From a virus (lineage: Duplodnaviria; Heunggongvirae; Uroviricota; Caudoviricetes): DNA of 64,000 bases. Below are positions 1-52,915 of the stretch, piece by piece. Where the stretch lies: IMG/VR virus record IMGVR_UViG_2861074659_000002, one strand, 5' to 3'. Under the pieces are notes generated by a model, which was not told the DNA's origin, did no database searches, and saw nothing but the letters and a program-made list of their open reading frames with translations. The translations under genes and the position numbers were made by a program. The first letter of the stretch is position 1, and every line of letters begins with the position of its first letter.

Positions 1-1201
<1,201 letters not shown>

Positions 1202-3538: not shown

Positions 3539-3693
3539 ACAGCCCCTCGTTTATTATTTATCTCCTCAGCCAGCCGCTGTGCTTTCAGTGGATTTCGGAT
3601 AACAGAAAGGCCGGGAAATACCCAGCCTCGCTTTGTAACGGAGTAGACGAAAGTGATTGCGCCTACCCGGATATTATCGTGAGGATGCGTCAT
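3511..3693 (-). CDS. Hypothetical protein orf60a (60 aa from second Met of ORF)
   Basis: [19 protein letters not shown]...; 4-nt overlap with exo as in lambda. Confidence 0.55.
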
Positions 3694-4370
3694 CGCCATT
3701 GCTCCCCAAATACAAAACCAATTTCAGCCAGTGCCTCGTCCATTTTTTCGATGAACTCCGGCACGATCTCGTCAAAACTCGCCATGTACTTTTCATCCCG
3801 CTCAATCACGACATAATGCAGGCCTTCACGCTTCATACGCGGGTCATAGTTGGCAAAGTACCAGGCATTTTTTCGCGTCACCCACATGCTGTACTGCACC
3901 TGGGCCATGTAAGCTGACTTTATGGCCTCGAAACCACCGAGCCGGAACTTCATGAAATCCCGGGAGGTAAACGGGCATTTCAGTTCAAGGCCGTTGCCGT
4001 CACTGCATAAACCATCGGGAGAGCAGGCGGTACGCATACTTTCGTCGCGATAGATGATCGGGGATTCAGTAACATTCACGCCGGAAGTGAATTCAAACAG
4101 GGTTCTGGCGTCGTTCTCGTACTGTTTTCCCCAGGCCAGTGCTTTAGCGTTAACTTCCGGAGCCACACCGGTGCAAACCTCAGCAAGCAGGGTGTGGAAG
4201 TAGGACATTTTCATGTCAGGCCACTTCTTTCCGGAGCGGGGTTTTGCTATCACGTTGTGAACTTCTGAAGCGGTGATGACGCCGAGCCGTAATTTGTGCC
4301 ACGCATCTTCCCCCTGTTCGACAGCTCTCACATCGATCCCGGTACGCTGCAGGATAATGTCCGGTGTCAT
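3690..4370 (-). CDS. exo: Lambda exonuclease (Red alpha, 226 aa)
   Basis: [20 protein letters not shown]... matches lambda Exo. Confidence 0.95.
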
Positions 4371-5152
4371 GCTGCCACCTTCTGCTCTGCGGCTTTCTGT
4401 TTCAGGAATCCAAGAGCTTTTACTGCTTCGGCCTGTGTCAGTTCTGACGATGCACGAATGTCGCGGCGAAATATCTGGGAACAGAGCGGCAATAAGTCGT
4501 CATCCCATGTTTTATCCAGGGCGATCAGCAGAGTGTTAATCTCCTGCATGGTTTCATCGTTAACCGGAGTGATGTCGCGTTCCGGCTGACGTTCTGCAGT
4601 GTATGCAGTATTTTCGACAATGCGCTCGGCTTCATCCTTGTCATAGATACCAGCAAATCCGAAGGCCAGACGGGCACACTGAATCATGGCTTTATGACGT
4701 AACATCCGTTTGGGATGCGACTGCCACGGCCCCGTGATTTCTCTGCCTTCGCGAGTTTTGAATGGTTCGCGGCGGCATTCATCCATCCATTCGGTAACGC
4801 AGATCGGATGATTACGGTCCTTGCGGTAAATCCGGCATGTACAGGATTCATTGTCCTGCTCAAAGTCCATGCCATCAAACTGCTGGTTTTCATTGATGAT
4901 GCGGGACCAGCCATCAACGCCCACCACCGGAACGATGCCATTCTGCTTATCAGGAAAGGCGTAAATTTCTTTCGTCCACGGATTAAGGCCGTACTGGTTG
5001 GCAACGATCAGTAATGCGATGAACTGCGCATCGCTGGCATCACCTTTAAATGCCGTCTGGCGAAGAGTGGTGATCAGTTCCTGTGGGTCGACAGAATCCA
5101 TGCCGACACGTTCAGCCAGCTTCCCAGCCAGCGTTGCGAGTGCAGTACTCAT
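4367..5152 (-). CDS. bet: Red beta single-strand annealing protein (261 aa)
   Basis: [48 protein letters not shown]... matches lambda Bet. Confidence 0.95.
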
Positions 5153-5157
5153 TCGTT

Positions 5158-5574
5158 TTATACCTCTGAATCAATATCAACCTGGTGGTGAGCAATGGTT
5201 TCAACCATGTACCGGATGTGTTCTGCCATGCGCTCCTGAAACTCAACATCGTCATCAAACGCACGGGTAATGGATTTTTTGCTGGCCCCGTGGCGTTGCA
5301 AATGATCGATGCATAGCGATTCAAACAGGTGCTGGGGCAGGCCTTTTTCCATGTCGTCTGCCAGTTCTGCCTCTTTCTCTTCACGGGCGAGCTGCTGGTA
5401 GTGACGCGCCCAGCTCTGAGCCTCAAGACGATCCTGAATGTAATAAGCGTTCATGGCTGAACTCCTGAAATAGCTGTGAAAATATCGCCCGCGAAATGCC
5501 GGGCTGATTAGGAAAACAGGAAAGGGGGTTAGTGAATGCTTTTGCTTGATCTCAGTTTCAGTATTAATATCCAT
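5158..5574 (-). CDS. gam: Gam RecBCD inhibitor (138 aa)
   Basis: [24 protein letters not shown]... matches lambda Gam. Confidence 0.95.
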
Positions 5575-5672
5575 TTTTTATAAGCGTCGACGGCTTCACG
5601 AAACATCTTTTCATCGCCAATAAAAGTGGCGATAGTGAATTTAGTCTGGATAGCCATAAGTGTTTGATCCAT
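5529..5672 (-). CDS. kil: Kil host-killing protein (47 aa)
   Basis: [47 protein letters not shown]. Confidence 0.75.
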
Positions 5673-5805
5673 TCTTTGGGACTCCTGGCTGATTAAGTAT
5701 GTCGATAAGGCGTTTCCATCCGTCACGTAATTTACGGGTGATTCGTTCAAGTAAAGATTCGGAAGGGCAGCCAGCAACAGGCCACCCTGCAATGGCATAT
5801 TGCAT
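5641..5805 (-). CDS. cIII: CIII (54 aa), FtsH inhibitor stabilising CII
   Basis: [54 protein letters not shown]. Confidence 0.85.
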   Translation of the reverse strand: MQYAIAGWPVAGCPSESLLERITRKLRDGWKRLIDILNQPGVPKNGSNTYGYPD

Positions 5806-5877
5806 GGTGTGCTCCTTATTTATACATAACGAAAAACGCCTCGAGTGAAGCGTTATTGGTATGCGGTAAAACCGCAC

Positions 5878-6246
5878 TCAGGCGGCCTTGATAGTCATAT
5901 CATCTGAATCAAATATTCCTGATGTATCGATATCGGTAATTCTTATTCCTTCGCTACCATCCATTGGAGGCCATCCTTCCTGACCATTTCCATCATTCCA
6001 GTCGAACTCACACACAACACCATATGCATTTAAGTCGCTTGAAATTGCTATAAGCAGAGCATGTTGCGCCAGCATGATTAATACAGCATTTAATACAGAG
6101 CCGTGTTTATTGAGTCGGTATTCAGAGTCTGACCAGAAATTATTAATCTGGTGAAGTTTTTCCTCTGTCATTACGTCATGGTCGATTTCAATTTCTATTG
6201 ATGCTTTCCAGTCGTAATCAATGATGTATTTTTTGATGTTTGACAT
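5878..6246 (-). CDS. ea10: Ea10 protein (122 aa)
   Basis: Length and position match lambda ea10. Confidence 0.75.
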   Translation of the reverse strand: MSNIKKYIIDYDWKASIEIEIDHDVMTEEKLHQINNFWSDSEYRLNKHGSVLNAVLIMLAQHALLIAISSDLNAYGVVCEFDWNDGNGQEGWPPMDGSEGIRITDIDTSGIFDSDDMTIKAA

Positions 6247-6428
6247 CTGTTCATATCCTCACAGATAAAAAATCGCCCTCACACTGGAGGGCAAAGAAGA
6301 TTTCCAATAATCAGAACAAGTCGGCTCCTGTTTAGTTACGAGCGACATTGCTCCGTGTATTCACTCGTTGGAATGAATACACAGTGCAGTGTTTATTCTG
6401 TTATTTATGCCAAAAATAAAGGCCACTA

Positions 6429-6707: not shown

Positions 6708-7037
6708 TCAAATAAGTGGTTTGCTGCCTAATTTAATTTTCTGGCGACCAACACAAGTCACACCCATTTCACTGCGTGGCTTGCTGTAGTAAATACGGTT
6801 CTGTTTACGCTCGACTTCTTCTGCCTTCTTGCAGCGAAGGCTTCCGAGTGATGCTGCTTTATCTGCTCTGACGCAACCAGAGAGCTTTAGCGCAATTTTT
6901 CGCGCCAGTGCTTCATTACTGCGTCGCTCGGCAATAAGTTCTGCTCTGCGAGCTTTGTAGCGGCTTTTTGCCGTACCTTTGGATTCTTTCCAGACAATGG
7001 TTACCATGATGGTCTCCTTTAAGTGGCTTTGGCGCAT
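6708..7037 (-). CDS. N: N antiterminator of phage-21 type (ORF 109 aa; true start may be the internal Met at MVTIVWKESKG)
   Basis: Arginine-rich motif GTAKSRYKARRAELIAERR typical of phi21 N; C-terminus resembles lambda N (...GRQKIK..PLI). Confidence 0.8.
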   Translation of the reverse strand: MRQSHLKETIMVTIVWKESKGTAKSRYKARRAELIAERRSNEALARKIALKLSGCVRADKAASLGSLRCKKAEEVERKQNRIYYSKPRSEMGVTCVGRQKIKLGSKPLI

Positions 7038-7300
7038 GACGCGTCGAGGTGCTTATCTTCTCGATCGCTGTCTTGTAGCTGCAATTCGCGCCATCCCCAA
7101 AACCACTCAAGTTCTGGTCTCAACGGTTAGGTTGAGAGTCCGTCGATGTTAAAGAGCCTGCCAATCTGTTCCGTTTGGCTTCCAGCGTCCTGCTGATGGC
7201 TTAAATTTAAGACTTCTTAATTTATTGGTCAAGTGCATTTTTGAAGAAAACTTAATTTTATGGGCGTGAATTTAGTTTGTCTTTGATTTTTAACGGGAAA

Positions 7301-7322
7301 TAAAAAAGGGGCGAAAGCCCCT
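7301..7322 (-). terminator. Rho-independent terminator hairpin downstream of cI (GGGGC-TTTC-GCCCC followed by T-run on minus strand)
   Basis: Perfect 5-bp stem with T6 tail read on minus strand immediately after cI stop. Confidence 0.5.
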
Positions 7323-7972
7323 TAAGGAAGGTTTGCTAGCTTGGCATCAACGACAACGCCAATGATTTTACAGTTCCCATTGATTTCAATCATTGGGTAT
7401 TGTGGATTGAGTGGTTTCAGGAATTTTCTACCGGCATCAATAACTAACTTTTTGAATGTCGCCTCGTTTTCTCCTTCAAGTTTGGCGACTACCAGCTTTC
7501 CATTACGTGGTTCGACTTCTGGGTCGACGAGAATAATCATCCCCTCAGGAATACTCAGTCCTGCCGGGGCAGTCATTGAATCGCCTTTAACGTCGAGCCA
7601 AAAAGAGTCTTCAGAACAATCTACCGTTGTGTCGTACCAGTTATCTATTGCACGCCTATGATATGGCTCTACAGCTTCCATCCAACATCCTGCGCTTACC
7701 CAACTAATTAGAGGATACGAACCTCTTGGATCATGCCTGCTGTGATAGGCAATGTTTGAAAGACTATCCTCTCCTTTCAACAGGTAATCAGGGGAGCACT
7801 GCAAAGCCTTGGCTAAGGCCAATAGGTTTTCGCCATTGGGCTCAGTTTCAGATCGCTCCCATTGGGAAATAGCAACATTAGACACGCCAACCATCTTGCC
7901 AAGGGCAGCCTGCCTAATCTTGAGTTCTTTTCTGCGAGCGCGAATACGCTCACCCATCAGTTGTGTATTCAT
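7322..7972 (-). CDS. cI: CI-type repressor (216 aa), P22 c2 / phage 21 family, HTH N-domain plus LexA-like S24 autocleavage domain
   Basis: MNTQLMGERIRARRKELKIRQAALGKMVGVSNVAISQWERSE...GDSM...NGNCKIIGVVVDAKLANLP; intact in copy 1. Confidence 0.9.
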   Translation of the reverse strand: MNTQLMGERIRARRKELKIRQAALGKMVGVSNVAISQWERSETEPNGENLLALAKALQCSPDYLLKGEDSLSNIAYHSRHDPRGSYPLISWVSAGCWMEAVEPYHRRAIDNWYDTTVDCSEDSFWLDVKGDSMTAPAGLSIPEGMIILVDPEVEPRNGKLVVAKLEGENEATFKKLVIDAGRKFLKPLNPQYPMIEINGNCKIIGVVVDAKLANLP

Positions 7973-8052
7973 AGTTAAGACATCTTAAATAAACTTGACT
8001 TAAGATTCCTTTGGTGGATAATTTAAGTGTTCTTTAATTTCGGAGCGAGTCT
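7973..8052. promoter_or_regulatory. Divergent operator/promoter region between cI and cro (OR with pR and pRM); candidate pR -35 TTGACT (7995..8000) and -10 GATAAT (8017..8022)
   Basis: 80-bp intergenic region between divergent repressor genes with sigma70-like hexamers at 16-bp spacing. Confidence 0.55.
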
Positions 8053-8237
8053 ATGTACAAAAAAGATGTTATTGACCACTTCGGAACCCAGCGTGCTGTT
8101 GCTAAGCACTAGGCATTAGCGATGCAGCAGTCTCTCAGTGGAAAGAAGTTATCCCAGAGAAAGACGCCTATCGATTGGAAATCGTTACAGCTGGCGCCCT
8201 GAAGTATCAAGAAAGTGCTTACCGCCAAGCGGCATAA
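8053..8237 (+). pseudogene. cro: Cro (P22 / phage 21 type) interrupted by a 1-bp deletion after codon 18 (AAA to AA), premature stop
   Basis: MYKKDVIDHFGTQRAVAKH* in copy 1 versus intact 61-aa ORF at 51392..51577 in copy 2. Confidence 0.8.
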
Positions 8238-8352
8238 GCAAATTGCTCTTTAACAGTTCTGGCCTTTCACCTCTAACCGGGTGAGCAAACATCAGCGGCA
8301 AATCCATTGGGTGTGCCGCTATAACTCAATATCAATATAGGTAAATTAACAA

Positions 8353-8650
8353 ATGGCACAAGCAAGCTACAGCAAGCCAACACAGCGAGAAATTGATCGC
8401 GCTGAAACTGATTTACTCATCAACCTGTCAACGCTTACCCAGCGCGGTCTGGCAAAGATGATTGGCTGTCATGAATCGAGATAAGCAGAACGGACTGGAG
8501 ATTATTGCTTCGGTCTTGTGTGCTTTCGGAATGGCATCAGACATCAGTCCGATTAGCAGGGCTTTTAAGTATGCGCTTGATGGACTCACAAAGAAAAAAC
8601 GCCCGGTGTGCAAGACCGAGCGTTCTGAACAAATCCAGATGGAGTTCTGA
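8353..8650 (+). pseudogene. cII: CII-like activator, apparently split over three reading frames (N-terminal 43 codons, then C-terminal ...KKKRPVCKTERSEQIQMEF in another frame)
   Basis: N-terminus MAQASYSKPTQREIDRAETDLLINLSTLTQRGLAKMIGCHES resembles cII HTH region; C-terminus matches lambda CII tail; same in both copies. Confidence 0.55.
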
Positions 8651-8681
8651 GGTCATTACTGGATCTATCAACAGAGTCATT

Positions 8682-9576
8682 ATGACAAATACAGCAAAAT
8701 ACTCAACTTCGGCAGAGGTAACTTGCCGGACAGGAGCGTAATGTGGCAGATCTCGATGATGGTTACGCCAGACTATCAAATATGCTGCTTGAGGCTTATT
8801 CGGGCGCAGATCTGACCAAGCGACAGTTTAAAGTGCTGCTTGCCATTCTGCGTAAACCTATGGTGGAATAAACCAATGGACAGAATCACCGATTCTCAAC
8901 TTAGCGAGATTACAAAGTTACCTGTCAAACGGTGCAATGAAGCCAAGTTAGAACTCGTCAGAATGAATATTATCAAGCAGCAAGGCGGCATGTTTGGACC
9001 AAATAAAAACATCTCAGAATGGTGTATCCCTCAAACGAGGGGAAAATCCCCTAAACGAGGGATAAAACATCCCTCAAATTGGGGGATTGCTATCCCTCAA
9101 AACAGGGGGACACAAAAGACACTATTACAAAAGAAAAAAGAAAAGATTATTCGTCAGAGAATTCTGGCGAATCCTCTGACCAGCCAGAAAACGACCTTTC
9201 TGTGGTGAAACCGGATGCTGCAATTCAGAGCGGCAGCAAGTGGGGGACAGCAGAAGACCTGACCGCCGCAGAGTGGATGTTTGACATGGTGAAGACTATC
9301 GCACCATCAGCCAGAAAACCGAATTTTGCTGGGTGGGCTAACGATATCCGCCTGATGCGTGAACGTGACGGACGTAACCACCGCGACATGTGTGTGCTGT
9401 TCCGCTGGGCATGCCAGGACAACTTCTGGTCCGGTAACGTGCTGAGCCCGGCCAAACTCCGCGATAAGTGGACCCAACTCGAAATCAACCGTAACAAGCA
9501 ACAGGCAGGCGTGACAGCCAGCAAACCAAAACTCGACCTGACAAACACAGACTGGATTTACGGGGTGGATCTATGA
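8682..9576 (+). pseudogene. O: Replication initiator O, fragmented by several 1-nt indels in N-terminal region and iterons; C-terminal 165 aa domain intact
   Basis: MTNTAK then frame breaks; pieces ...NKPMDRITDSQLSEITKLPVKRCNEAKLELVRMNIIKQQGGMFGPNKNISEWCIPQ and CYPSKQGDTKDT...WIYGVDL match lambda O in different frames. Confidence 0.8.
9026..9150. promoter_or_regulatory. ori: Origin of replication (four O-binding iterons ATCCCTCAAA-CGAGGG type plus AT-rich region) embedded in O
   Basis: Four tandem ~18-20 bp inverted-repeat iterons followed by A-rich tract; iteron spacer lengths differ from what I recall for lambda. Confidence 0.7.
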
Positions 9577-10274
9577 AAAACATCGCCGCACAGATGGTTA
9601 ACTTTGACCGTGAGCAGATGCGTCGGATCGCCAACAACATGCCGGAACAGTACGACGAAAAGCCGCAGGTACAGCAGGTAGCGCAGATCATCAACGGTGT
9701 GTTCAGCCAGTTACTGGCAACTTTCCCGGCGAGCCTGGCTAACCGTGACCAGAACGAAGTGAACGAAATCCGTCGCCAGTGGGTTCTGGCTTTTCGGGAA
9801 AACGGGATCACCACGATGGAACAGGTTAACGCAGGAATGCGCGTAGCCCGTCGGCAGAATCGACCATTTCTGCCATCACCCGGGCAGTTTGTTGCATGGT
9901 GCCGGGAAGAAGCATCCGTTACCGCCGGACTGCCAAACGTCAGCGAGCTGGTTGATATGGTTTACGAGTATTGCCGGAAGCGAGGCCTGTATCCGGATGC
10001 GGAGTCTTATCCGTGGAAATCAAACGCGCACTACTGGCTGGTTACCAACCTGTATCAGAACATGCGGGCCAATGCGCTTACTGATGCGGAATTACGCCGT
10101 AAGGCCGCAGATGAGCTTGTCCATATGACTGCGAGAATTAACCGTGGTGAGGCGATCCCTGAACCAGTAAAACAACTTCCTGTCATGGGCGGTAGACCTC
10201 TAAATCGTGCACAGGCTCTGGCGAAGATCGCAGAAATCAAAGCTAAGTTCGGACTGAAAGGAGCAAGTGTATGA
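9573..10274 (+). CDS. P: Replication protein P (DnaB helicase loader, 233 aa)
   Basis: Full-length match to lambda P. Confidence 0.95.
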
Positions 10275-11074
10275 CGGGCAAAGAGGCAATTATTCATTAC
10301 CTGGGGACGCATAATAGCTTCTGTGCGCCGGACGTTGCCGCGCTAACAGGCGCAACAGTAACCAGCATAAATCAGGCCGCGGCTAAAATGGCACGGGCAG
10401 GTCTTCTGGTTATCGAAGGTAAGGTCTGGCGAACGGTGTATTACCGGTTTGCTACCAGGGAAGAACGGGAAGGAAAGATGAGCACGAACCTGATGAACAA
10501 ACTGGATACGATTGGATTCGACAACAAAAAAGACCTGCTTATCTCGGTGGGCGATTTGGTTGATCGTGGTGCAGAGAACGTTGAATGCCTGGAATTAATC
10601 ACATTCCCCTGGTTCAGAGCTGTACGTGGAAACCATGAGCAAATGATGATTGATGGCTTATCAGAGCGTGGAAACGTTAATCACTGGCTGCTTAATGGCG
10701 GTGGCTGGTTCTTTAATCTCGATTACGACAAAGAAATTCTGGCTAAAGCTCTTGCCCATAAAGCAGATGAACTTCCGTTAATCATCGAACTGGTGAGCAA
10801 AGATAAAAAATATGTTATCTGCCACGCCGATTATCCCTTTGACGAATACGAGTTTGGAAAGCCAGTTGATCATCAGCAGGTAATCTGGAACCGCGAACGA
10901 ATCAGCAACTCACAAAACGGGATCGTGAAAGAAATCAAAGGCGCGGACACGTTCATCTTTGGTCATACGCCAGCAGTGAAACCACTCAAGTTTGCCAACC
11001 AAATGTATATCGATACCGGCGCAGTGTTCTGCGGAAACCTAACATTGATTCAGGTACAGGGAGAAGGCGCATGA
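10271..11074 (+). CDS. Ren-NinI fusion created by nin5-type deletion; C-terminal part is Ser/Thr protein phosphatase (lambda PPase) with GDxVDRG and GNHE motifs
   Basis: N-terminus [27 protein letters not shown] (Ren) joined in frame to ...[36 protein letters not shown]...RGNHE (NinI/orf221). Confidence 0.85.
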
Positions 11075-11694
11075 GACTCGAAAGCGTAGCTAAATTTCAT
11101 TCGCCAAAAAGCCCGATGATGAGCGACTCACCACGGGCCACGGCTTCTGACTCTCTTTCCGGTACTGATGTGATGGCTGCTATGGGGATGGCGCAATCAC
11201 AAGCCGGATTCGGTATGGCTGCATTCTGCGGTAAGCACGAACTCAGCCAGAACGACAAACAAAAGGCTATCAACTATCTGATGCAATTTGCACACAAGGT
11301 ATCGGGGAAATACCGTGGTGTGGCATATCTTGAAGGAAATACTAAGGCAAAGGTACTGCAAGTGCTCGCAACATTCGCTTATGCGGATTATTGCCGTAGT
11401 GCCGCGACGCCGGGGGCAAGATGCAGAGATTGCCATGGTACAGGCCGTGCGGTTGATATTGCCAAAACAGAGCTGTGGGGGAGAGTTGTCGAGAAAGAGT
11501 GCGGAAGATGCAAAGGCGTCGGCTATTCAAGGATGCCAGCAAGCGCAGCATATCGCGCTGTGACGATGCTAATCCCAAACCTTACCCAACCCACCTGGTC
11601 ACGCACTGTTAAGCCGCTGTATGACGCTCTGGTGGTGCAATGCCACAAAGAAGAGTCAATCGCAGACAACATTTTGAATGCGGTCACACGTTAG
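11071..11694 (+). CDS. Q: Late gene antiterminator Q (207 aa)
   Basis: Length/position and sequence match lambda Q. Confidence 0.9.
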
Positions 11695-11736
11695 CAGCAT
11701 GATTGCCACGGATGGCAACATATTAACGGCATGATA

Positions 11737-11766
11737 TTGACTTATTGAATAAAATTGGGTAAATTT
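11737..11766 (+). promoter_or_regulatory. Late promoter pR' (-35 TTGACT 11737..11742, -10 TAAATT 11760..11765, 17-bp spacer), with qut region
   Basis: Consensus-like sigma70 hexamers downstream of Q and about 190 nt upstream of tR'. Confidence 0.65.
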
Positions 11767-11805
11767 GACTCAACGATGGGTTAATTCGCTCGTTGTGGTA
11801 GTGAG

Positions 11806-12000
11806 ATGAAAAGAGGCGGCGCTTACTACCGATTCCGCCTAGTTGGTCACTTCGACGTATCGTCTGGAACTCCAACCATCGCAGGCAGAGAGGTCTGCAA
11901 AATGCAATCCCGAAACAGTTCGCAGGTAATAGTTAGAGCCTGCATAACGGTTTCGGGATTTTTTATATCTGCACAACAGGTAAGAGCATTGAGTCGATAA
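11806..12000 (+). CDS. Hypothetical orf-64 overlapping 6S leader RNA region
   Basis: 64-aa ORF at lambda orf-64 position; coding status doubtful. Confidence 0.3.
   Translation: MKRGGAYYRFRLVGHFDVSSGTPTIAGREVCKMQSRNSSQVIVRACITVSGFFISAQQVRALSR
11905..11966 (+). terminator. tR' terminator (3' end of 6S RNA): stem AATCCCGAAAC...GTTTCGGGATT followed by T-run
   Basis: Long GC-containing hairpin followed by TTTTTTA. Confidence 0.65.
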
Positions 12001-12370
12001 TCGTGAAGAGTCGGCGAGCCTGGTTAGCCAGTGCTCTTTCCGTTGTGCTGAATTAAGCGAATACCGGAAGCAGAACCGGATCACCAAATGCGTACAGGCG
12101 TCATCGCCGCCCAGCAACAGCACAACCCAAACTGAGCCGTAGCCACTGTCTGTCCTGAATTCATTAGTAATAGTTACGCTGCGGCCTTTTACACATGACC
12201 TTCGTGAAAGCGGGTGGCAGGAGGTCGCGCTAACAACCTCCTGCCGTTTTGCCCGTGCATATCGGTCACGAACAAATCTGATTACTAAACACAGTAGCCT
12301 GGATTTGTTCTATCAGTAATCGACCTTATTCCTAATTAAATAGAGCAAATCCCCTTATTGGGGGTAAGAC

Positions 12371-12694
12371 ATGAAGATGCCAGAAAAACATGACCTGTTG
12401 GCCGCCATTCTCGCGGCAAAGGAACAAGGCATCGGGGCAATCCTTGCGTTTGCAATGGCGTACCTTCGCGGCAGATATAATGGCGGTGCGTTTACAAAAA
12501 CAGTAATCGACGCAACGATGTGCGCCATTATCGCCTGGTTCATTCGTGACCTTCTCGACTTCGCCGGACTAAGTAGCAATCTCGCTTATATAACGAGCGT
12601 GTTTATCGGCTACATCGGTACTGACTCGATTGGTTCGCTTATCAAACGCTTCGCTGCTAAAAAAGCCGGAGTAGAAGATGGTAGAAATCAATAA
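12371..12694 (+). CDS. S: Holin/antiholin S (S107 from Met1; S105 holin from Met3 at 12377), wild type
   Basis: [34 protein letters not shown]...; dual-start MKM motif; Trp56 codon intact. Confidence 0.95.
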
Positions 12695-13154
12695 TCAACG
12701 TAAGGCGTTCCTCGATATGCTGGCGTGGTCGGAGGGAACTGATAACGGACGTCAGAAAACCAGAAATCATGGTTATGACGTCATTGTAGGCGGAGAGCTA
12801 TTCACTGATTACTCCGATCACCCTCGCAAACTTGTCACGCTAAACCCAAAACTCAAATCAACAGGCGCCGGACGCTACCAGCTTCTTTCCCGTTGGTGGG
12901 ATGCCTACCGCAAGCAGCTTGGCCTGAAAGACTTCTCTCCGAAAAGTCAGGACGCTGTGGCATTGCAGCAGATTAAGGAGCGTGGCGCTTTACCTATGAT
13001 TGATCGTGGTGATATCCGTCAGGCAATCGACCGTTGCAGCAATATCTGGGCTTCACTGCCGGGCGCTGGTTATGGTCAGTTCGAGCATAAGGCTGACAGC
13101 CTGATTGCAAAATTCAAAGAAGCGGGCGGAACGGTCAGAGAGATTGATGTATGA
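12678..13154 (+). CDS. R: Endolysin R (lytic transglycosylase, 158 aa)
   Basis: [28 protein letters not shown]... matches lambda R. Confidence 0.95.
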
Positions 13155-13612
13155 GCAGAGTCACCGCGATTATCTCCGCTCTGGTTATCTGCATCATCGT
13201 CTGCCTGTCATGGGCTGTTAATCATTACCGTGATAACGCCATTACCTACAAAGCCCAGCGCGACAAAAATGCCAGAGAACTGAAGCTGGCGAACGCGGCA
13301 ATTACTGACATGCAGATGCGTCAGCGTGATGTTGCTGCGCTCGATGCAAAATACACGAAGGAGTTAGCTGATGCTAAAGCTGAAAATGATGCTCTGCGTG
13401 ATGATGTTGCCGCTGGTCGTCGTCGGTTGCACATCAAAGCAGTCTGTCAGTCAGTGCGTGAAGCCACCACCGCCTCCGGCGTGGATAATGCAGCCTCCCC
13501 CCGACTGGCAGACACCGCTGAACGGGATTATTTCACCCTCAGAGAGAGGCTGATCACTATGCAAAAACAACTGGAAGGAACCCAGAAGTATATTAATGAG
13601 CAGTGCAGATAG
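13151..13612 (+). CDS. Rz: Spanin inner-membrane subunit Rz (153 aa)
   Basis: Matches lambda Rz. Confidence 0.9.
13371..13553 (+). CDS. Rz1: Spanin outer-membrane lipoprotein Rz1 (60 aa), embedded in +1 frame of Rz
   Basis: [23 protein letters not shown]... lipobox LVVVGC, proline-rich. Confidence 0.85.
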
Positions 13613-13643
13613 AGCTGACCATATCGATGGGCAACTCATGCAA

Positions 13644-13937
13644 TTATTTTGAGCAATACACACGCGCTTCCAGCGGAGTATAAATGCCTAAAGTAATAAA
13701 ACCGAGCAATCCATTTACGAATGTTTGCTGGGTTTCTGTTTTAACAACATTTTCTGCGCCGCCACAAATTTTAGCTGCATCGACAGTTTTCTTCTGCCCA
13801 ATTCCAGAAACGAAGAAATGATGGGTGATGGTTTCCTTTGGTGCTACTGCTGCCGGTTTGTTTTGAACAGTAAACGTCTGTTGAGCACATCCTGTAATAA
13901 GCAGGGCCAGCGCAGTAGCGAGTAGCATTTTTTTCAT
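13644..13937 (-). CDS. bor: Bor lipoprotein (serum resistance, 97 aa)
   Basis: MKKMLLATALALLITGCAQQ... lipobox; matches lambda Bor. Confidence 0.9.
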   Translation of the reverse strand: MKKMLLATALALLITGCAQQTFTVQNKPAAVAPKETITHHFFVSGIGQKKTVDAAKICGGAENVVKTETQQTFVNGLLGFITLGIYTPLEARVYCSK

Positions 13938-14226
13938 GGTGTTATTCCCGATGCTTTTTGAAGTTCGCAGAATCGTATGTGTAGAAAATTAAACAAACCC
14001 TAAACAATGAGTTGAAATTTCATATTGTTAATATTTATTAATGTATGTCAGGTGCGATGAATCGTCATTGTATTCCCGGATTAACTATGTCCACAGCCCT
14101 GACGGGGAACTTCTCTGCGGGAGTGTCCGGGAATAATTAAAACGATGCACACAGGGTTTAGCGCGTACACGTATTGCATTATGCCAACGCCCCGGTGCTG
14201 ACACGGAAGAAACCGGACGTTATGAT

Positions 14227-14760
14227 TTAGCGTGGAAAGATTTGTGTAGTGTTCTGAATGCTCTCAGTAAATAGTAATGAATTATCAAAGGTATAGTAAT
14301 ATCTTTTATGTTCATGGATATTTGTAACCCATCGGAAAACTCCTGCTTTAGCAAGATTTTCCCTGTATTGCTGAAATGTGATTTCTCTTGATTTCAACCT
14401 ATCATAGGACGTTTCTATAAGATGCGTGTTTCTTGAGAATTTAACATTTACAACCTTTTTAAGTCCTTTTATTAACACGGTGTTATCGTTTTCTAACACG
14501 ATGTGAATATTATCTGTGGCTAGATAGTAAATATAATGTGAGACGTTGTGACGTTTTAGTTCAGAATAAAACAATTCACAGTCTAAATCTTTTCGCACTT
14601 GATCGAATATTTCTTTAAAAATGGCAACCTGAGCCATTGGTAAAACCTTCCATGTGATACGAGGGCGCGTAGTTTGCATTATCGTTTTTATCGTTTCAAT
14701 CTGGTCTGACCTCCTTGTGTTTTGTTGATGATTTATGTCAAATATTAGGAATGTTTTCAC
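14227..14760 (-). CDS. Hypothetical protein (lambda p78-like, 177 aa)
   Basis: ORF at lambda p78 position between bor and cos. Confidence 0.6.
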
Positions 14761-14922
14761 TTAATAGTATTGGTTGCGTAACAAAGTGCGGTCCTGCTGG
14801 CATTCTGGAGGGAAATACAACCGACAGATGTATGTAAGGCCAACGTGCTCAAATCTTCATACAGAAAGATTTGAAGTAATATTTTAACCGCTAGATGAAG
14901 AGCAAGCGCATGGAGCGACAAA

Positions 14923-15129
14923 ATGAATAAAGAACAATCTGCTGATGATCCCTCCGTGGATCTGATTCGTGTAAAAAATATGCTTAATAGCACCATTTCT
15001 ATGAGTTACCCTGATGTTGTAATTGCATGTATAGAACATAAGGTGTCTCTGGAAGCATTCAGAGCAATTGAGGCAGCGTTGGTGAAGCACGATAATAATA
15101 TGAAGGATTATTCCCTGGTGGTTGACTGA
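14923..15129 (+). CDS. Hypothetical protein (lambda p79-like, 68 aa)
   Basis: ORF at lambda p79 position. Confidence 0.4.
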
Positions 15130-15293
15130 TCACCATAACTGCTAATCATTCAAACTATTTAGTCTGTGACAGAGCCAACACGCAGTCTGTCACTGTCAGG
15201 AAAGTGGTAAAACTGCAACTCAATTACTGCAATGCCCTCGTAATTAAGTGAATTTACAATATCGTCCTGTTCGGAGGGAAGAACGCGGGATGT

Positions 15294-15488
15294 TCATTCT
15301 TCATCACTTTTAATTGATGTATATGCTCTCTTTTCTGACGTTAGTCTCCGACGGCAGGCTTCAATGACCCAGGCTGAGAAATTCCCGGACCCTTTTTGCT
15401 CAAGAGCGATGTTAATTTGTTCAATCATTTGGTTAGGAAAGCGGATGTTGCGGGTTGTTGTTCTGCGGGTTCTGTTCTTCGTTGACAT
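15294..15488 (-). CDS. Putative small ribbon-helix-helix DNA-binding protein (64 aa)
   Basis: RNIRFPNQMIEQINIALEQKG...FSAWVIEACRRRL pattern resembles Arc/CopG RHH fold; about 200 bp from cos. Confidence 0.35.
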   Translation of the reverse strand: MSTKNRTRRTTTRNIRFPNQMIEQINIALEQKGSGNFSAWVIEACRRRLTSEKRAYTSIKSDEE

Positions 15489-15675
15489 GAGGTTGCCCCG
15501 TATTCAGTGTCGCTGATTTGTATTGTCTGAAGTTGTTTTTACGTTAAGTTGATGCAGATCAATTAATACGATACCTGCGTCATAATTGATTATTTGACGT
15601 GGTTTGATGGCCTCCACGCACGTTGTGATATGTAGATGATAATCATTATCACTTTACGGGTCCTTTCCGGTGATC

Positions 15676-15699
15676 CGACAGGTTACGGGGCGGCGACCT
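15676..15699. other. cos: cos site (cosN); right end ...CAGGTTACG joined to left-end 12-nt cohesive sequence GGGCGGCGACCT
   Basis: Exact lambda cohesive-end sequence at 15688..15699 followed by Nu1 190 nt downstream. Confidence 0.9.
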
Positions 15700-15876
15700 C
15701 GCGGGTTTTCGCTATTTATGAAAATTTTCCGGTTTAAGGCGTTTCCGTTCTTCTTCGTCATAACTTAATGTTTTTATTTAAAATACCCTCTGAAAAGAAA
15801 GGAAACGACAGGTGCTGAAAGCGAGCTTTTTGGCCTCTGTCGTTTCCTTTCTCTGTTTTTGTCCGTGGAATGAACA

Positions 15877-16396
15877 ATGGAAGTCAACAAAAAGCAGCTG
15901 GCTGACATTTTCGGTGCGAGTATCCGTACCATTCAGAACTGGCAGGAACAGGGAATGCCCGTTCTGCGAGGCGGTGGCAAGGGTAATGAGGTGCTTTATG
16001 ACTCTGCCGCCGTCATAAAATGGTATGCCGAAAGGGATGCTGAAATTGAGAACGAAAAGCTGCGCCGGGAGGTTGAAGAACTGCGGCAGGCCAGCGAGGC
16101 AGATCTCCAGCCAGGAACTATTGAGTACGAACGCCATCGACTTACGCGTGCGCAGGCCGACGCACAGGAACTGAAGAATGCCAGAGACTCCGCTGAAGTG
16201 GTGGAAACCGCATTCTGTACTTTCGTGCTGTCGCGGATCGCAGGTGAAATTGCCAGTATTCTCGACGGGCTCCCCCTGTCGGTGCAGCGGCGTTTTCCGG
16301 AACTGGAAAACCGACATGTTGATTTCCTGAAACGGGATATCATCAAAGCCATGAACAAAGCAGCCGCGCTGGATGAACTGATACCGGGGTTGCTGA

Positions 16397-16422
<26 letters not shown>
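15877..16422 (+). CDS. nu1: Terminase small subunit Nu1 (181 aa)
   Basis: MEVNKKQLADIFGASIRTIQNWQEQGMPV... matches lambda Nu1. Confidence 0.95.
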
Positions 16423-20103
<3,681 letters not shown>

Positions 20104-20123
<20 letters not shown>

Positions 20124-21422
20124 TCTCCCGCATATTGCCAGCATGGCCTTTAATGAGCCGCTGATGCTTGAACCCGCCTATGCGCGGGTTTTCTTTTGTG
20201 CGCTTGCAGGCCAGCTTGGGATCAGCAGCCTGACGGATGCGGTGTCCGGCGACAGCCTGACTGCCCAGGAGGCACTCGCGACGCTGGCATTATCCGGTGA
20301 TGATGACGGACCACGACAGGCCCGCAGTTATCAGGTCATGAACGGCATCGCCGTGCTGCCGGTGTCCGGCACGCTGGTCAGCCGGACGCGGGCGCTGCAG
20401 CCGTACTCGGGGATGACCGGTTACAACGGCATTATCGCCCGTCTGCAACAGGCTGCCAGCGATCCGATGGTGGACGGCATTCTGCTCGATATGGACACGC
20501 CCGGCGGGATGGTGGCGGGGGCATTTGACTGCGCTGACATCATCGCCCGTGTGCGTGACATAAAACCGGTATGGGCGCTTGCCAACGACATGAACTGCAG
20601 TGCAGGTCAGTTGCTTGCCAGTGCCGCCTCCCGGCGTCTGGTCACGCAGACCGCCCGGACAGGCTCCATCGGCGTCATGATGGCTCACAGTAATTACGGT
20701 GCTGCGCTGGAGAAACAGGGTGTGGAAATCACGCTGATTTACAGCGGCAGCCATAAGGTGGATGGCAACCCCTACAGCCATCTTCCGGATGACGTCCGGG
20801 AGACACTGCAGTCCCGGATGGACGCAACCCGCCAGATGTTTGCGCAGAAGGTGTCGGCATATACCGGCCTGTCCGTGCAGGTTGTGCTGGATACCGAGGC
20901 TGCAGTGTACAGCGGTCAGGAGGCCATTGATGCCGGACTGGCTGATGAACTTGTTAACAGCACCGATGCGATCACCGTCATGCGTGATGCACTGGATGCA
21001 CGTAAATCCCGTCTCTCAGGAGGGCGAATGACCAAAGAGACTCAATCAACAACTGTTTCAGCCACTGCTTCGCAGGCTGACGTTACTGACGTGGTGCCAG
21101 CGACGGAGGGCGAGAACGCCAGCGCGGCGCAGCCGGACGTGAACGCGCAGATCACCGCAGCGGTTGCGGCAGAAAACAGCCGCATTATGGGGATCTCAAC
21201 TGTGAGGAGGCTCACGGACGCGAAGAACAGGCACGCGTGCTGGCAGAAACCCCCGGTATGACCGTGAAAACGGCCCGCCGCATTCTGGCCGCAGCACCAC
21301 AGAGTGCACAGGCGCGCAGTGACACTGCGCTGGATCGTCTGATGCAGGGGGCACCGGCACCGCTGGCTGCAGGTAACCCGGCATCTGATGCCGTTAACGA
21401 TTTGCTGAACACACCAGTGTAA
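20104..21422 (+). pseudogene. C: Prohead protease C with nested scaffold Nu3; frameshifted by 1-bp deletion at 21191..21196
   Basis: GTG start at 20104; after ...AENSRIMGI the frame ends at 21261 while the C/Nu3 C-terminus (LAETPGMTVKTARRILAAAP...DLLNTPV) continues in another frame to 21422. Confidence 0.8.
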
Positions 21423-38369: not shown

Positions 38370-39602
38370 TCAATTGTTCATAGTGTTTACATCACCGCCA
38401 ATTGCTTTTAAGACTGAACGCATGAAATATGGTTTTTCGTCATGTTTTGAGTCTGCTGTTGATATTTCTAAAGTCGGTTTTTTTTCTTCGTTTTCTCTAA
38501 CTATTTTCCATGAAATACATTTTTGATTATTATTTGAATCAATTCCAATTACCTGAAGTCTTTCATCTATAATTGGCATTGTATGTATTGGTTTATTGGA
38601 GTAGATGCTTGCTTTTCTGAGCCATAGCTCTGATATCCAAATGAAGCCATAGGCATTTGTTATTTTGGCTCTGTCAGCTGCATAACGCCAAAAAATATAT
38701 TTATCTGCTTGATCTTCAAATGTTGTATTGATTAAATCAATTGGATGGAATTGTTTATCATAAAAAATTAATGTTTGAATGTGATAACCGTCCTTTAAAA
38801 AAGTCGTTTCTGCAAGCTTGGCTGTATAGTCAACTAACTCTTCTGTCGAAGTGATATTTTTAGGCTTATCTACCAGTTTTAGACGCTCTTTAATATCTTC
38901 AGGAATTATTTTATTGTCATATTGTATCATGCTAAATGACAATTTGCTTATGGAGTAATCTTTTAATTTTAAATAAGTTATTCTCCTGGCTTCATCAAAT
39001 AAAGAGTCGAATGATGTTGGCGAAATCACATCGTCACCCATTGGATTGTTTATTTGTATGCCAAGAGAGTTACAGCAGTTATACATTCTGCCATAGATTA
39101 TAGCTAAGGCATGTAATAATTCGTAATCTTTTAGCGTATTAGCGACCCATCGTCTTTCTGATTTAATAATAGATGATTCAGTTAAATATGAAGGTAATTT
39201 CTTTTGTGCAAGTCTGACTAACTTTTTTATACCAATGTTTAACATACTTTCATTTGTAATAAACTCAATGTCATTTTCTTCAATGTAAGATGAAATAAGA
39301 GTAGCCTTTGCCTCGCTATACATTTCTAAATCGCCTTGTTTTTCTATCGTATTGCGAGAATTTTTAGCCCAAGCCATTAATGGATCATTTTTCCATTTTT
39401 CAATAACATTATTGTTATACCAAATGTCATATCCTATAATCTGGTTTTTGTTTTTTTGAATAATAAATGTTACTGTTCTTGCGGTTTGGAGGAATTGATT
39501 CAAATTCAAGCGAAATAATTCAGGGTCAAAATATGTATCAATGCAGCATTTGAGCAAGTGCGATAAATCTTTAAGTCTTCTTTCCCATGGTTTTTTAGTC
39601 AT
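38370..39602 (-). CDS. ea47: Ea47 accessory protein (410 aa from Met at 39602; ORF extends to 39629), function unknown
   Basis: Low-GC b-region ORF at lambda ea47 position. Confidence 0.7.
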   Translation of the reverse strand: MTKKPWERRLKDLSHLLKCCIDTYFDPELFRLNLNQFLQTARTVTFIIQKNKNQIIGYDIWYNNNVIEKWKNDPLMAWAKNSRNTIEKQGDLEMYSEAKATLISSYIEENDIEFITNESMLNIGIKKLVRLAQKKLPSYLTESSIIKSERRWVANTLKDYELLHALAIIYGRMYNCCNSLGIQINNPMGDDVISPTSFDSLFDEARRITYLKLKDYSISKLSFSMIQYDNKIIPEDIKERLKLVDKPKNITSTEELVDYTAKLAETTFLKDGYHIQTLIFYDKQFHPIDLINTTFEDQADKYIFWRYAADRAKITNAYGFIWISELWLRKASIYSNKPIHTMPIIDERLQVIGIDSNNNQKCISWKIVRENEEKKPTLEISTADSKHDEKPYFMRSVLKAIGGDVNTMNN

Positions 39603-40192
39603 AAAACTCTCCATTTTGATAGGTTGCATGCTAGATGCTGATATATTTTAGAGGTGATAAAATTAACTGCTTAACTGTCAATGTAATACAAGTTGTTTGA
39701 TCTTTGCAATGATTCTTATCAGAAACCATATAGTAAATTAGTTACACAGGAAATTTTTAATATTATTATTATCATTCATTATGTATTAAAATTAGAGTTG
39801 TGGCTTGGCTCTGCTAACACGTTGCTCATAGGAGATATGGTAGAGCCGCAGACACGTCGTATGCAGGAACGTGCTGCGGCTGGCTGGTGAACTTCCGATA
39901 GTGCGGGTGTTGAATGATTTCCAGTTGCTACCGATTTTACATATTTTTTGCATGAGAGAATTTGTACCACCTCCCACCGACCATCTATGACTGTACGCCA
40001 CTGTCCCTAGGACTGCTATGTGCCGGAGCGGACATTACAAACGTCCTTCTCGGTGCATGCCACTGTTGCCAATGACCTGCCTAGGAATTGGTTAGCAAGT
40101 TACTACCGGATTTTGTAAAAACAGCCCTCCTCATATAAAAAGTATTCGTTCACTTCCGATAAGCGTCGTAATTTTCTATCTTTCATCATATT

Positions 40193-41083
40193 CTAGATCC
40201 CTCTGAAAAAATCTTCCGAGTTTGCTAGGCACTGATACATAACTCTTTTCCAATAATTGGGGAAGTCATTCAAATCTATAATAGGTTTCAGATTTGCTTC
40301 AATAAATTCTGACTGTAGCTGCTGAAACGTTGCGGTTGAACTATATTTCCTTATAACTTTTACGAAAGAGTTTCTTTGAGTAATCACTTCACTCAAGTGC
40401 TTCCCTGCCTCCAAACGATACCTGTTAGCAATATTTAATAGCTTGAAATGATGAAGAGCTCTGTGTTTGTCTTCCTGCCTCCAGTTCGCCGGGCATTCAA
40501 CATAAAAACTGATAGCACCCGGAGTTCCGGAAACGAAATTTGCATATACCCATTGCTCACGAAAAAAAATGTCCTTGTCGATATAGGGATGAATCGCTTG
40601 GTGTACCTCATCTACTGCGAAAACTTGACCTTTCTCTCCCATATTGCAGTCGCGGCACGATGGAACTAAATTAATAGGCATCACCGAAAATTCAGGATAA
40701 TGTGCAATAGGAAGAAAATGATCTATATTTTTTGTCTGTCCTATATCACCACAAAATGGACATTTTTCACCTGATGAAACAAGCATGTCATCGTAATATG
40801 TTCTAGCGGGTTTGTTTTTATCTCGGAGATTATTTTCATAAAGCTTTTCTAATTTAACCTTTGTCAGGTTACCAACTACTAAGGTTGTAGGCTCAAGAGG
40901 GTGTGTCCTGTCGTAGGTAAATAACTGACCTGTCGAGCTTAATATTCTATATTGTTGTTCTTTCTGCAAAAAAGTGGGGAAGTGAGTAATGAAATTATTT
41001 CTAACATTTATCTGCATCATACCTTCCGAGCATTTATTAAGCATTTCGCTATAAGTTCTCGCTGGAAGAGGTAGTTTTTTCAT
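40193..41083 (-). CDS. ea31: Ea31 accessory protein (296 aa) with HNH-type nuclease motif
   Basis: CPFCGD...IDHFLPIAHYPEFSVMPINLVPSCRDCNMGEKG resembles HNH endonuclease (Cys pairs flanking His-Asn-His-like core); 4-nt overlap with ea59. Confidence 0.75.
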   Translation of the reverse strand: MKKLPLPARTYSEMLNKCSEGMMQINVRNNFITHFPTFLQKEQQYRILSSTGQLFTYDRTHPLEPTTLVVGNLTKVKLEKLYENNLRDKNKPARTYYDDMLVSSGEKCPFCGDIGQTKNIDHFLPIAHYPEFSVMPINLVPSCRDCNMGEKGQVFAVDEVHQAIHPYIDKDIFFREQWVYANFVSGTPGAISFYVECPANWRQEDKHRALHHFKLLNIANRYRLEAGKHLSEVITQRNSFVKVIRKYSSTATFQQLQSEFIEANLKPIIDLNDFPNYWKRVMYQCLANSEDFFRGI

Positions 41084-46880: not shown

Positions 46881-47035
46881 ACAGCCCCTCGTTTATTATT
46901 TATCTCCTCAGCCAGCCGCTGGGCTTTCAGTGGATTTTGGATAACAGAAAGGCCGGGAAATACCCAGCCTCGCTTTGTAACGGAGTAGACGAAAGTGATC
47001 GCACCTACCCGGATATTATCGTGAGGATGCTTCAT
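46853..47035 (-). CDS. orf60a (copy 2; 2 aa substitutions vs copy 1)
   Basis: MTHPHD in copy 1 vs MKHPHD in copy 2. Confidence 0.55.
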
Positions 47036-48494: not shown

Positions 48495-48499
48495 CCGTT

Positions 48500-48916
48500 T
48501 TATACCTCTGAATCAATATCAACCTGATGGTGAGCAATGGTTTCAACCATGTACCGGATGTGTTCTGCCATGCGCTCCTGAAACTCAACATCGTCATCAA
48601 ATGCACGGGTAATGGCTTTTTTGCTGGCCCCGCAGCGTTGTAAATGATCGATGCAGAGCGATTCAAACAAATGCTGGGGCAGGCCTTTTTCCATGTCGTC
48701 TGCCAGTTCTGCCTCTTTCTCTTCACGGGCGAGCTGCTGGTAGTGACGCGCCCAGCTCTGAGCCTCAAGACGATCCTGAATGTAATAAGCGTTCATGGCT
48801 GAACTCCTGAAATAGCTGTGAAAATATCGCCCGCGAAATGCCAGGCTGATTAGGAAAACAGGAAAGGGGGTTAGTGAATGCTTTTGCTTGATCTCAGTTT
48901 CAGCATTAATATCCAT
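48500..48916 (-). CDS. gam: Gam (copy 2; about 4 aa substitutions vs copy 1)
   Basis: Full-length 138 aa ORF. Confidence 0.95.
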
Positions 48917-49147: not shown

Positions 49148-49219
49148 GGTGTGCTCCTTATTTATACATAACGAAAAACGCCTCGAGTGAAGCGTTATTG
49201 GTATGCGGTAAAACCGCAC

Positions 49220-50663: not shown

Positions 50664-51311
50664 TTAAGGAAGGTTTGCTAGCTTGGCATCAACGACAACG
50701 CCAATGATTTTACAGTTCCCATTGATTTCAATCATTGGGTATTGTGGATTGAGTGGTTTCAGGAATTTTCTACCGGCATCAATAACTAACTTTTTGAATG
50801 TCGCCTCGTTTTCTCCTTCAAGTTTGGCGACTACCAGCTTTCCATTACGTGGTTCGACTTCTGGGTCGACGAGAATAATCATCCCCTCAGGAATACTCAG
50901 TCCTGCCGGGCAGTCATTGAATCGCCTTTAACGTCGAGCCAAAAAGAGTCTTCAGAACAATCTACCGTTGTGTCGTACCAGTTATCTATTGCACGCCTAT
51001 GATATGGCTCTACAGCTTCCATCCAACATCCTGCGCTTACCCAACTAATTAGAGGATACGAACCTCTTGGATCATGCCTGCTGTGATAGGCAATGTTTGA
51101 AAGACTATCCTCTCCTTTCAACAGGTAATCAGGGAGCACTGCAAAGCCTTGGCTAAGGCCAATAGGTTTCGCCATTGGGCTCAGTTTCAGATCGCTCCCA
51201 TTGGGAAATAGCAACATTAGACACGCCAACCATCTTGCCAAGGGCAGCCTGCCTAATCTTGAGTTCTTTTCTGCGAGCGCGAATACACTCACCCATCAGT
51301 TGTGTATTCAT
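50664..51311 (-). pseudogene. cI: cI repressor (copy 2) disrupted by three 1-bp homopolymer deletions plus one substitution
   Basis: Split into ORFs 50664..50882 and 50897..51292; deletions at about 50908 (GGGG to GGG), 51131 (GGGG to GGG), 51167 (TTTT to TTT) relative to copy 1. Confidence 0.85.
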
Positions 51312-51391
51312 AGTTAAGACATCTTAAATAAACTTGACTTAAGATTCCTTTGGTGGATAATTTAAGTGTTCTTTAATTTCGGAGCGAGTCT

Positions 51392-51577
51392 ATGTACAAA
51401 AAAGATGTTATTGACCACTTCGGAACCCAGCGTGCTGTTGCTAAAGCACTAGGCATTAGCGATGCAGCAGTCTCTCAGTGGAAAGAAGTTATCCCAGAGA
51501 AAGACGCCTATCGATTGGAAATCGTTACAGCTGGCGCCCTGAAGTATCAAGAAAGTGCTTACCGCCAAGCGGCATAA
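51392..51577 (+). CDS. cro: Cro (P22 / phage 21 type), intact 61 aa
   Basis: MYKKDVIDHFGTQRAVAKALGISDAAVSQWKEVIPEKDAYRLEIVTAGALKYQESAYRQAA. Confidence 0.9.
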   Translation: MYKKDVIDHFGTQRAVAKALGISDAAVSQWKEVIPEKDAYRLEIVTAGALKYQESAYRQAA

Positions 51578-51691
51578 GCAAATGCTCTTTAACAGTTCTG
51601 GCCTTTCACCTCTAACCGGGTGAGCAAACATCAGCGGCAAATCCATTGGGTGTGCCGCTATAACTCAATATCAATATAGGTAAATTAACAA

Positions 51692-51989
51692 ATGGCACAA
51701 GCAAGCTACAGCAAGCCAACACAGCGAGAAATTGATCGCGCTGAAACTGATTTACTCATCAACCTGTCAACGCTTACCCAGCGCGGTCTGGCAAAGATGA
51801 TTGGCTGTCATGAATCGAGATAAGCAGAACGGACTGGAGATTATTGCTTCGGTCTTGTGTGCTTTCGGAATGGCATCAGACATCAGTCCGATTAGCAGGG
51901 CTTTTAAGTATGCGCTTGATGGACTCACAAAGAAAAAACGCCCGGTGTGCAAGACCGAGCGTTCTGAACAAATCCAGATGGAGTTCTGA
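51692..51989 (+). pseudogene. cII: cII-like, split across frames (copy 2)
   Basis: Same structure as copy 1. Confidence 0.55.
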
Positions 51990-52020
51990 GGTCATTACTG
52001 GATCTATCAACAGAGTCATT

Positions 52021-52915
52021 ATGACAAATACAGCAAAATACTCAACTTCGGCAGAGGTAACTTGCCGGACAGGAGCGTAATGTGGCAGATCTCGATGATG
52101 GTTACGCCAGACTATCAAATATGCTGCTTGAGGCTTATTCGGGCGCAGATCTGACCAAGCGACAGTTTAAAGTGCTGCTTGCCATTCTGCGTAAACCTAT
52201 GGTGGAATAAACCAATGGACAGAATCACCGATTCTCAACTTAGCGAGATTACAAAGTTACCTGTCAAACGGTGCAATGAAGCCAAGTTAGAACTCGTCAG
52301 AATGAATATTATCAAGCAGCAAGGCGGCATGTTTGGACCAAATAAAAACATCTCAGAATGGTGTATCCCTCAAACGAGGGGAAAATCCCCTAAACGAGGG
52401 ATAAAACATCCCTCAAATTGGGGGATTGCTATCCCTCAAAACAGGGGGACACAAAAGACACTATTACAAAAGAAAAAAGAAAAGATTATTCGTCAGAGAA
52501 TTCTGGCGAATCCTCTGACCAGCCAGAAAACGACCTTTCTGTGGTGAAACCGGATGCTGCAATTCAGAGCGGCAGCAAGTGGGGGACAGCAGAAGACCTG
52601 ACCGCCGCAGAGTGGATGTTTGACATGGTGAAGACTATCGCACCATCAGCCAGAAAACCGAATTTTGCTGGGTGGGCTAACGATATCCGCCTGATGCGTG
52701 AACGTGACGGACGTAACCACCGCGACATGTGTGTGCTGTTCCGCTGGGCATGCCAGGACAACTTCTGGTCCGGTAACGTGCTGAGCCCGGCCAAACTCCG
52801 CGATAAGTGGACCCAACTCGAAATCAACCGTAACAAGCAACAGGCAGGCGTGACAGCCAGCAAACCAAAACTCGACCTGACAAACACAGACTGGATTTAC
52901 GGGGTGGATCTATGA
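52021..52915 (+). pseudogene. O: Replication protein O, fragmented (copy 2)
   Basis: Same ORF fragments as copy 1. Confidence 0.8.

Follow-up and report, generated by a model that had tools for sequence, protein, structure and literature searches.

The cII gene in this stretch of lambdoid phage DNA (64,000 nucleotides in length and analysed as a whole, below called the window) is written in three reading frames in each of its two copies. We consider this split most probably an error of the sequence record and not a property of the phage, the technical cause being proposed from the pattern of changes, and the real cII is very probably intact. The underlying gene would be an ordinary phage-21-type cII of 99 aa, belonging to the lambda CII family and located between cro/nutR/tR1 and O, in which two short runs (AA and TTT) were each read one base short. 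Both runs would lie inside a locally poor stretch of about 1 kb (8104-9053; in copy 2 50908-52392), in which homopolymer lengths were miscounted. The two deletions were observed directly, as were the cluster of changes to which they belong, the link of these changes to homopolymers and their absence from every independent sequence.

The cII gene as written

An earlier note on this DNA had described a cII divided over three frames. Alignment to reference sequences verified the split and its position, and the frames had been reconstructed essentially correctly. Frame 1 (8353-8478) comprised 42 native codons, after which the first deletion created AGA TAA with the stop at 8482-8484, resulting in an ORF of 43 aa at 8353-8484; the N-terminus thus ended after 43 codons as described. 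The second frame (8481-8501) contained seven native codons and the third (8504-8650) the last 48 codons and the stop (IASVLCAFGM...EQIQMEF). One base was lost from each of the codons K43 and F51, and the two 1-nt deletions that had been suggested as the cause were exactly those found against the references. The same pattern had been noticed in copy 2, and there the agreement was base for base. Of the two signatures ascribed to the middle segment, ISR..DW was indeed present in a piece of only 7-8 codons, but VLSEW is not cII sequence. It lies in an ORF at 8505-8741, in which the middle frame continues beyond the second deletion, and is an out-of-frame reading of the C-terminal part of cII.

In a five-way alignment with DE3, phage 21 and lambda h434 imm21 the only differences over a 341-nt stretch covering cII were two 1-nt gaps, and the resemblance of the pieces to cII is therefore due to homology and not to chance. 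The reference gene was 300 nt long and identical in DE3, phage 21 (OL657228) and lambda h434 imm21; it was also 300 nt long and intact in lambda imm21. Translation of the DE3 and phage 21 genes resulted in one continuous 99-aa protein each, annotated as "transcription activator" in OL657228 and as "CII-like transcriptional activator" in NC_042057. The alignment to phage 21 cII, which had been named beforehand as a check, thus revealed a continuous 99-codon ORF that differed from the window by the two bases only. Among phage 21, lambda imm21, DE3 and the window, cII occupied the same place with 298 of 300 positions identical and the pRE site unchanged; the window differed in lacking the two bases and in an ORF that ended after 43 codons.

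The rebuilt 99-aa protein matched the Pfam family Phage_CII (PF05269) with 124.5 bits over profile positions 1-91, the curated cut-off being 21.3 bits. The 43-aa piece alone scored 48.8 bits (positions 1-39) and the C-terminal piece 47.6 bits (48-91); profile positions 40-47, absent from both flanking pieces, correspond to the middle segment ISRTDWR. A single ORF of about 97-99 codons is expected for this family, whereas the written gene had a stop at codon 44 in both copies. The position of cII between cro/nutR/tR1 and the replication gene O followed the gene order of DE3 and phage 21. Lambda cII (NP_040630, 97 aa) belongs to the same Pfam family and shares the gene order, a homologous C-terminus and the downstream O region with the window, which is lambda-homologous from 8585 (lambda 38591). 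It differs in that the N-terminal two thirds in the window are a diverged imm21 allele; lambda cII itself is absent. An exact-protein look-up of the 43-aa product yielded no match on record, and an Rfam scan of 7900-9300 gave no match.

The frame layout by itself would fit a cII whose product is made from three frames by means of programmed ribosomal frameshifting or transcriptional slippage, but such recoding is so improbable that we give it practically no credence. All relatives contained one continuous ORF, and the reference alignment effectively refutes the idea. The two sites are runs of 1-2 residual bases, a slippery heptamer was found at neither of them, and two consecutive +1-type events 24 nt apart would be required. 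Furthermore, the same lesions were found in non-coding DNA (the ribosome binding site (RBS) of O and the iterons).

Table. Coordinates of cII, of the surrounding cluster of single-base changes and of the neighbouring genes in the window.
Feature	Position	Strand	Observation
cII (phage 21 type), copy 1	8353..8650	+	298 nt vs 300 in references; three frames (alignment to DE3, phage 21, lambda h434 imm21)
cII, copy 2	51692..51989	+	base-for-base as copy 1, both deletions included
cII deletion 1	8479..8479	+	AA->A, TCGAAGAT -> TCGAGAT, codon K43
cII deletion 2	8502..8503	+	TTT->TT, GAGATTTATT -> GAGATTATT, codon F51
cII middle segment ISRTDWR	8481..8501	+	second frame, between deletions 1 and 2
CII binding site TTGC-N6-TTGC of pRE, inside cII 5' end	8362..8375	-	unchanged vs phage 21 annotation
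Cluster, copy 1	8104..9053	+	11 single-base homopolymer length changes: 10 contractions, 1 expansion; 0 substitutions
Cluster change in cro	8104		AAA->AA, copy 1
Cluster changes in cII	8479, 8502		
Cluster change in Shine-Dalgarno of O	8674		AGGAG -> AGAG
Cluster changes in O	8696, 8723, 8857, 8862		
Cluster changes in O and ori iterons 1 and 2	9036, 9039 (+G), 9053		
Cluster, copy 2	50908..52392	+	same 10 changes from cII to ori, plus cI deletions, one substitution, T deletion 51583
cro, copy 1	8053..8237	+	185 nt vs 186; stop at codon 20
Replication gene O, copy 1	8682..9576	+	895 nt vs 900; first stop at codon 20; at least 4 ORF pieces
Replication gene O, copy 2	52021-52915		same state as copy 1
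cI (imm21 repressor), copy 1	7322..7972	-	intact, same as DE3 C2
cI, copy 2	50664..51311	-	648 nt vs 651; three 1-nt deletions; stop at codon 53

Single-base changes around cII

The window was compared with prophage DE3 (NC_042057 / EU078592) over 313-36915, and along these 36.6 kb the list of differences contained 2 mismatches and 14 one-base gaps. Eleven of the 14 indels were located within 950 nt around cII (P about 5e-14 after correction for the choice of interval). All 11 fell in runs of at least 2 bases, a class that makes up 46% of the bases (P = 2e-4), and the hit rate increased with the length of the run: 0 of 557 single bases, 2 of 145 doublets, 5 of 45 triplets and 4 of 11 runs of four or more were affected. 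Homopolymers would have been miscounted about once per 90 bases in the cluster. The density climbed to the right, with 1 change in 8104-8478, 2 in 8479-8673, 3 in 8674-8856 and 5 in 8857-9053, and ended abruptly at 9053. The same changes were obtained when phage 21 or lambda h434 imm21 was used as the reference, and those in the lambda-homologous part also against lambda itself; at every site the references agreed with each other.

Homopolymer-length miscalls occur in late Sanger read tails, in consensus sequences from 454, Ion Torrent or nanopore reads and in sequence typed by hand. The cluster resembled such miscalls in that nearly all changes were one-base contractions, became more frequent with run length, were free of substitutions, put needed, even indispensable, genes out of frame and were absent from independent sequences. 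It differed in being confined to about 1-1.5 kb, with the same contexts elsewhere correct. All affected 7-10-mer contexts that have further occurrences in the genome are correct in those places, and the errors are therefore not systematic with respect to context, which argues against an artefact unless a special local cause is assumed. Candidates for this cause are poor quality at the end of a read, low coverage and a segment compiled by hand. The rightward rise and the sudden stop at 9053 would agree with the end of one read that had been joined to known lambda sequence, or with a patch of low coverage.

A second point against an artefact is that ten errors were shared exactly by copies that differ elsewhere, which independent random errors would not do. 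Copies 1 and 2 were 100% identical over 8244-20661, and the identity of the two cII genes is for this reason no independent confirmation: we infer that one shared consensus or one pasted segment would have brought the same errors into both copies. At run-length differences between the copies, each copy was the sole deviant from all references at its own sites.

Several other origins were tested and rejected. A genome-wide, context-specific error of the chemistry was dismissed on the correct reading of each affected 7-10-mer elsewhere. Composition bias was dismissed with a GC content across the cluster of 44-47%, which is ordinary. A reference-guided correction that skipped imm21-specific DNA was discarded, as the imm21-specific part 6724-8103 of copy 1 was free of errors and the cluster extended about 470 nt into lambda-identical O sequence. 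The imm21/lambda homology border at 8585 was discarded as a cause as well, because the cluster crosses it. The older partial phage 21 record AJ237660 contains the intact sequence and was not the source of the errors. A naturally decayed pseudogene did not agree with 2 substitutions against 14 clustered indels in 36.6 kb.

Three lone one-base deletions outside the cluster, at 21195, 30112 and 34223, each concerned a single A outside runs, in which they differed from homopolymer miscalls, and caused frameshifts in the essential genes C/Nu3, K and J. Position 21195 corresponds to what was the BamHI site 5505 of lambda. DE3 has lost this site by a C->A substitution, and the window lacks one base there. 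This missing base also looks like a record error. The deletion of a G at 15825 (lambda 138) and the insertion of a G at 29952 (lambda 14266/7) relative to J02459 were common to DE3; the present record departs here from the 1982 lambda reference without being in error.

Intact cII was found in all independent sequences, namely OL657228, AJ237660, DE3 (the phage record and about 20 lysogen assemblies), DN1, lambda imm21 and lambda h434 imm21, and at every indel site these agreed with each other. An exact match to the cluster was found in none of the phage, plasmid and complete E. coli genome records; the roughly 20 DE3-lysogen assemblies listed and AJ237660 contained the longer, intact version. 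At least 120 IMG/VR contigs carried the intact 50-mer across both cII sites, and 0 IMG/VR contigs carried either single deletion. The doubly deleted 48-mer was absent from phages, plasmids, complete E. coli genomes, IMG/VR, GTDB genomes and JGI metagenomes.

Phages without a functional cII are viable and frequent among laboratory stocks, and the lesions were present in both copies; one or both cII deletions might thus be genuine, forming a true cII-null, clear-plaque allele, and the neighbouring indels sequencing noise. We regard this as very unlikely. The cII indels could not be told apart from their nine neighbours by type, context or sharing between the copies, a double frameshift 24 nt apart without restoration of the frame would be an odd real allele, and the rest of the lysogeny circuit of copy 1 (pRE site, cI and cIII) was untouched.

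Genes and sites affected beyond cII

Gene by gene against DE3, copy 1 contained frameshifts in cro, cII, O, C (with Nu3 inside), K and J, and copy 2 in cI, cII and O; more than 30 other genes encoded proteins identical to those of DE3. The gene cro was intact in copy 2. O carried seven changes, six deletions and one insertion, with a net loss of 5 nt. An exact-protein look-up of a 165-aa O fragment returned only unrelated cryptic prophages of EHEC strains. Over 8674-9053 (copy 2: 52013-52392) the RBS of O lacked one G and ori iterons 1 and 2 were changed, from AAAACGAGGG to AAACGAGGGG and from TAAAACGAGG to TAAACGAGG. The cI deletions of copy 2 were at 50908, 51132 and 51167, accompanied by a substitution at 51287 (G->A, R9C), and the cro-cII spacer of copy 2 had TT->T at 51583.

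The same type of lesion hit cro, the O RBS, O, the ori iterons, cI (copy 2), C/Nu3, K and J, and the defect is therefore not specific to cII. The earlier idea that this might be an engineered or helper phage, with a defective cII and therefore poor at lysogenising, found no support in this distribution. The sequencing error that had been offered in its place was the better alternative, but it was not systematic as proposed: it was local, restricted to 8104-9053 (from 50908 in copy 2). A phage with exactly the written sequence could neither replicate nor build heads or tails, because O, the O RBS, two of four iterons, C/Nu3 (head protease/scaffold), K (tail) and the receptor-binding end of J are lost, and neither copy could help the other, since the O lesions are common to both. 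That non-viable lesions sit in an otherwise pristine genome, nearly the same as DE3 and lambda, favours an error of the record.

The window was identified as a laboratory lambda imm21 nin5 hybrid, present in about one and a half copies, and is related to D69 and DE3. In the imm21 substitution lambda 34381-38591 is replaced by window 6724-8585, and nin5 has removed the lambda DNA between 40501 and 43298, the junction being at about window 10483-10494. The cos sites at 15687/15688 and 59026/59027 define a unit of 43,339 bp, and an intact attP (about 43408) forms the connection between the two copies. At 10271-11074 nin5 fuses ren to ninI to form one ORF of 267 aa, annotated in DE3 as serine/threonine phosphatase. 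At 11326-11328 the lambda HindIII site 44141 is lost by two substitutions (AAGCTT -> TATCTT), as in DE3.

Window 1-320 starts exactly at the ATG of the TEM beta-lactamase gene (bla). It comprises roughly 307 nt from the 5' part of bla and, after these, an EcoRI/BamHI linker (GGAATTCGGATCC) that connects with lambda int at its BamHI site (lambda 27972). The window is an engineered lambda vector with a 3'-truncated bla'. The bla'-linker-int junction was searched for in the same collections as the doubly deleted cII 48-mer and was found in none of them. LambdaRS45 has been described as imm21 ind+ bla'-lacZsc (PMC2681174) and serves as a lead only to the identity of the vector. LambdaRS45-type vectors and D69/DE3 resemble the window in the lambda imm21 nin5 backbone, the foreign insert at the int BamHI site and the 3'-truncated bla'; DE3 also has the HindIII-removing mutation in common with it. 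LambdaRS45-type vectors differ in that the linker of the window is not followed by lacZ; what precedes bla' lies outside the window.

The tandem copies (313-20661 and 43655-64000) were not identical: the bla' insert was present in the int of copy 1, and the int of copy 2 was uninterrupted. A simple wrap-around or rolling-circle concatemer of one phage can thus not account for the window; a tandem dilysogen formed by two phages, a mixed assembly and the joining of records are possible origins. Between 46922-49709 (copy 2) and 3580-6367 (copy 1) we found 58 substitutions in exo-bet-gam-kil-cIII-ea10. There the allele of copy 2 was 99.8% identical to phage 21 and that of copy 1 was of the lambda/DE3 type; in copy 2 the phage 21 substitution therefore reaches further leftward from the immunity region. 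J has substitutions at 34188 and 34417 (lambda 18503 C>T and 18733 G>T), both in its receptor-binding C-terminal part and absent from DE3 and lambda; they might be host-range (h) mutations. The window also contains some 4.9 kb from the b region of lambda (36915-41788, stf/tfa-ea47-ea31-ea59 side), deleted in DE3. This DNA was nearly identical to lambda; listed substitutions were at 36345, 38128 and 41346.

The clearly engineered nature of this lambda DNA, with a bla' fragment and an EcoRI/BamHI linker fused to int, two non-identical copies joined via attP as in a tandem dilysogen and ten changes common to both copies, speaks for the mutations being real. The window would then contain two tandem crippled lambda imm21 prophages, created deliberately or accidentally (reporter or vector plus helper), with cro-cII-O-ori wrecked and kept passively in the chromosome. 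We judge this improbable. Eleven independent -1/+1 events in 950 nt without substitutions correspond to no known mutational outcome; natural decay proceeds mostly by substitutions, and a designer would delete the module instead of scattering frameshifts. The O defect was present in both copies, in addition to the C, K and J frameshifts in copy 1 (the same part of copy 2 is outside the window), and neither copy could for this reason have been propagated as a phage from which to obtain the lysogen. None of the changes was found in any other sequence searched.

Genuine frameshifts might also have arisen by a localised process that made a dense patch of -1 homopolymer changes across cro-cII-O-ori and left the other 40 kb untouched, a scenario to which we attach very little weight. 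An error-prone burst of slippage-type synthesis or a poor synthetic or PCR-derived replacement fragment would be candidates for such a process.

Implications for cII and for the record

CII activates pRE, pI and paQ and thereby commits the phage to lysogeny, as known from lambda and applied here by homology, and loss of CII results in clear plaques. If the written sequence were real, the 43-aa product, which ends about 40% into the 99-aa protein, would represent a null allele. As it stands, automatic annotation of the record would turn cII, cro, O, cI (copy 2), C, K and J into pseudogenes or fragments. Agreement between two repeat copies inside one record does not independently confirm a variant, and the record is no basis for ascribing phenotypes like "lysogenises poorly" or "replication-defective helper" to the phage. 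The scientific weight of the split is small: cII is a well-known gene in phage 21 and lambda imm21, and in the real DNA it is almost surely intact.
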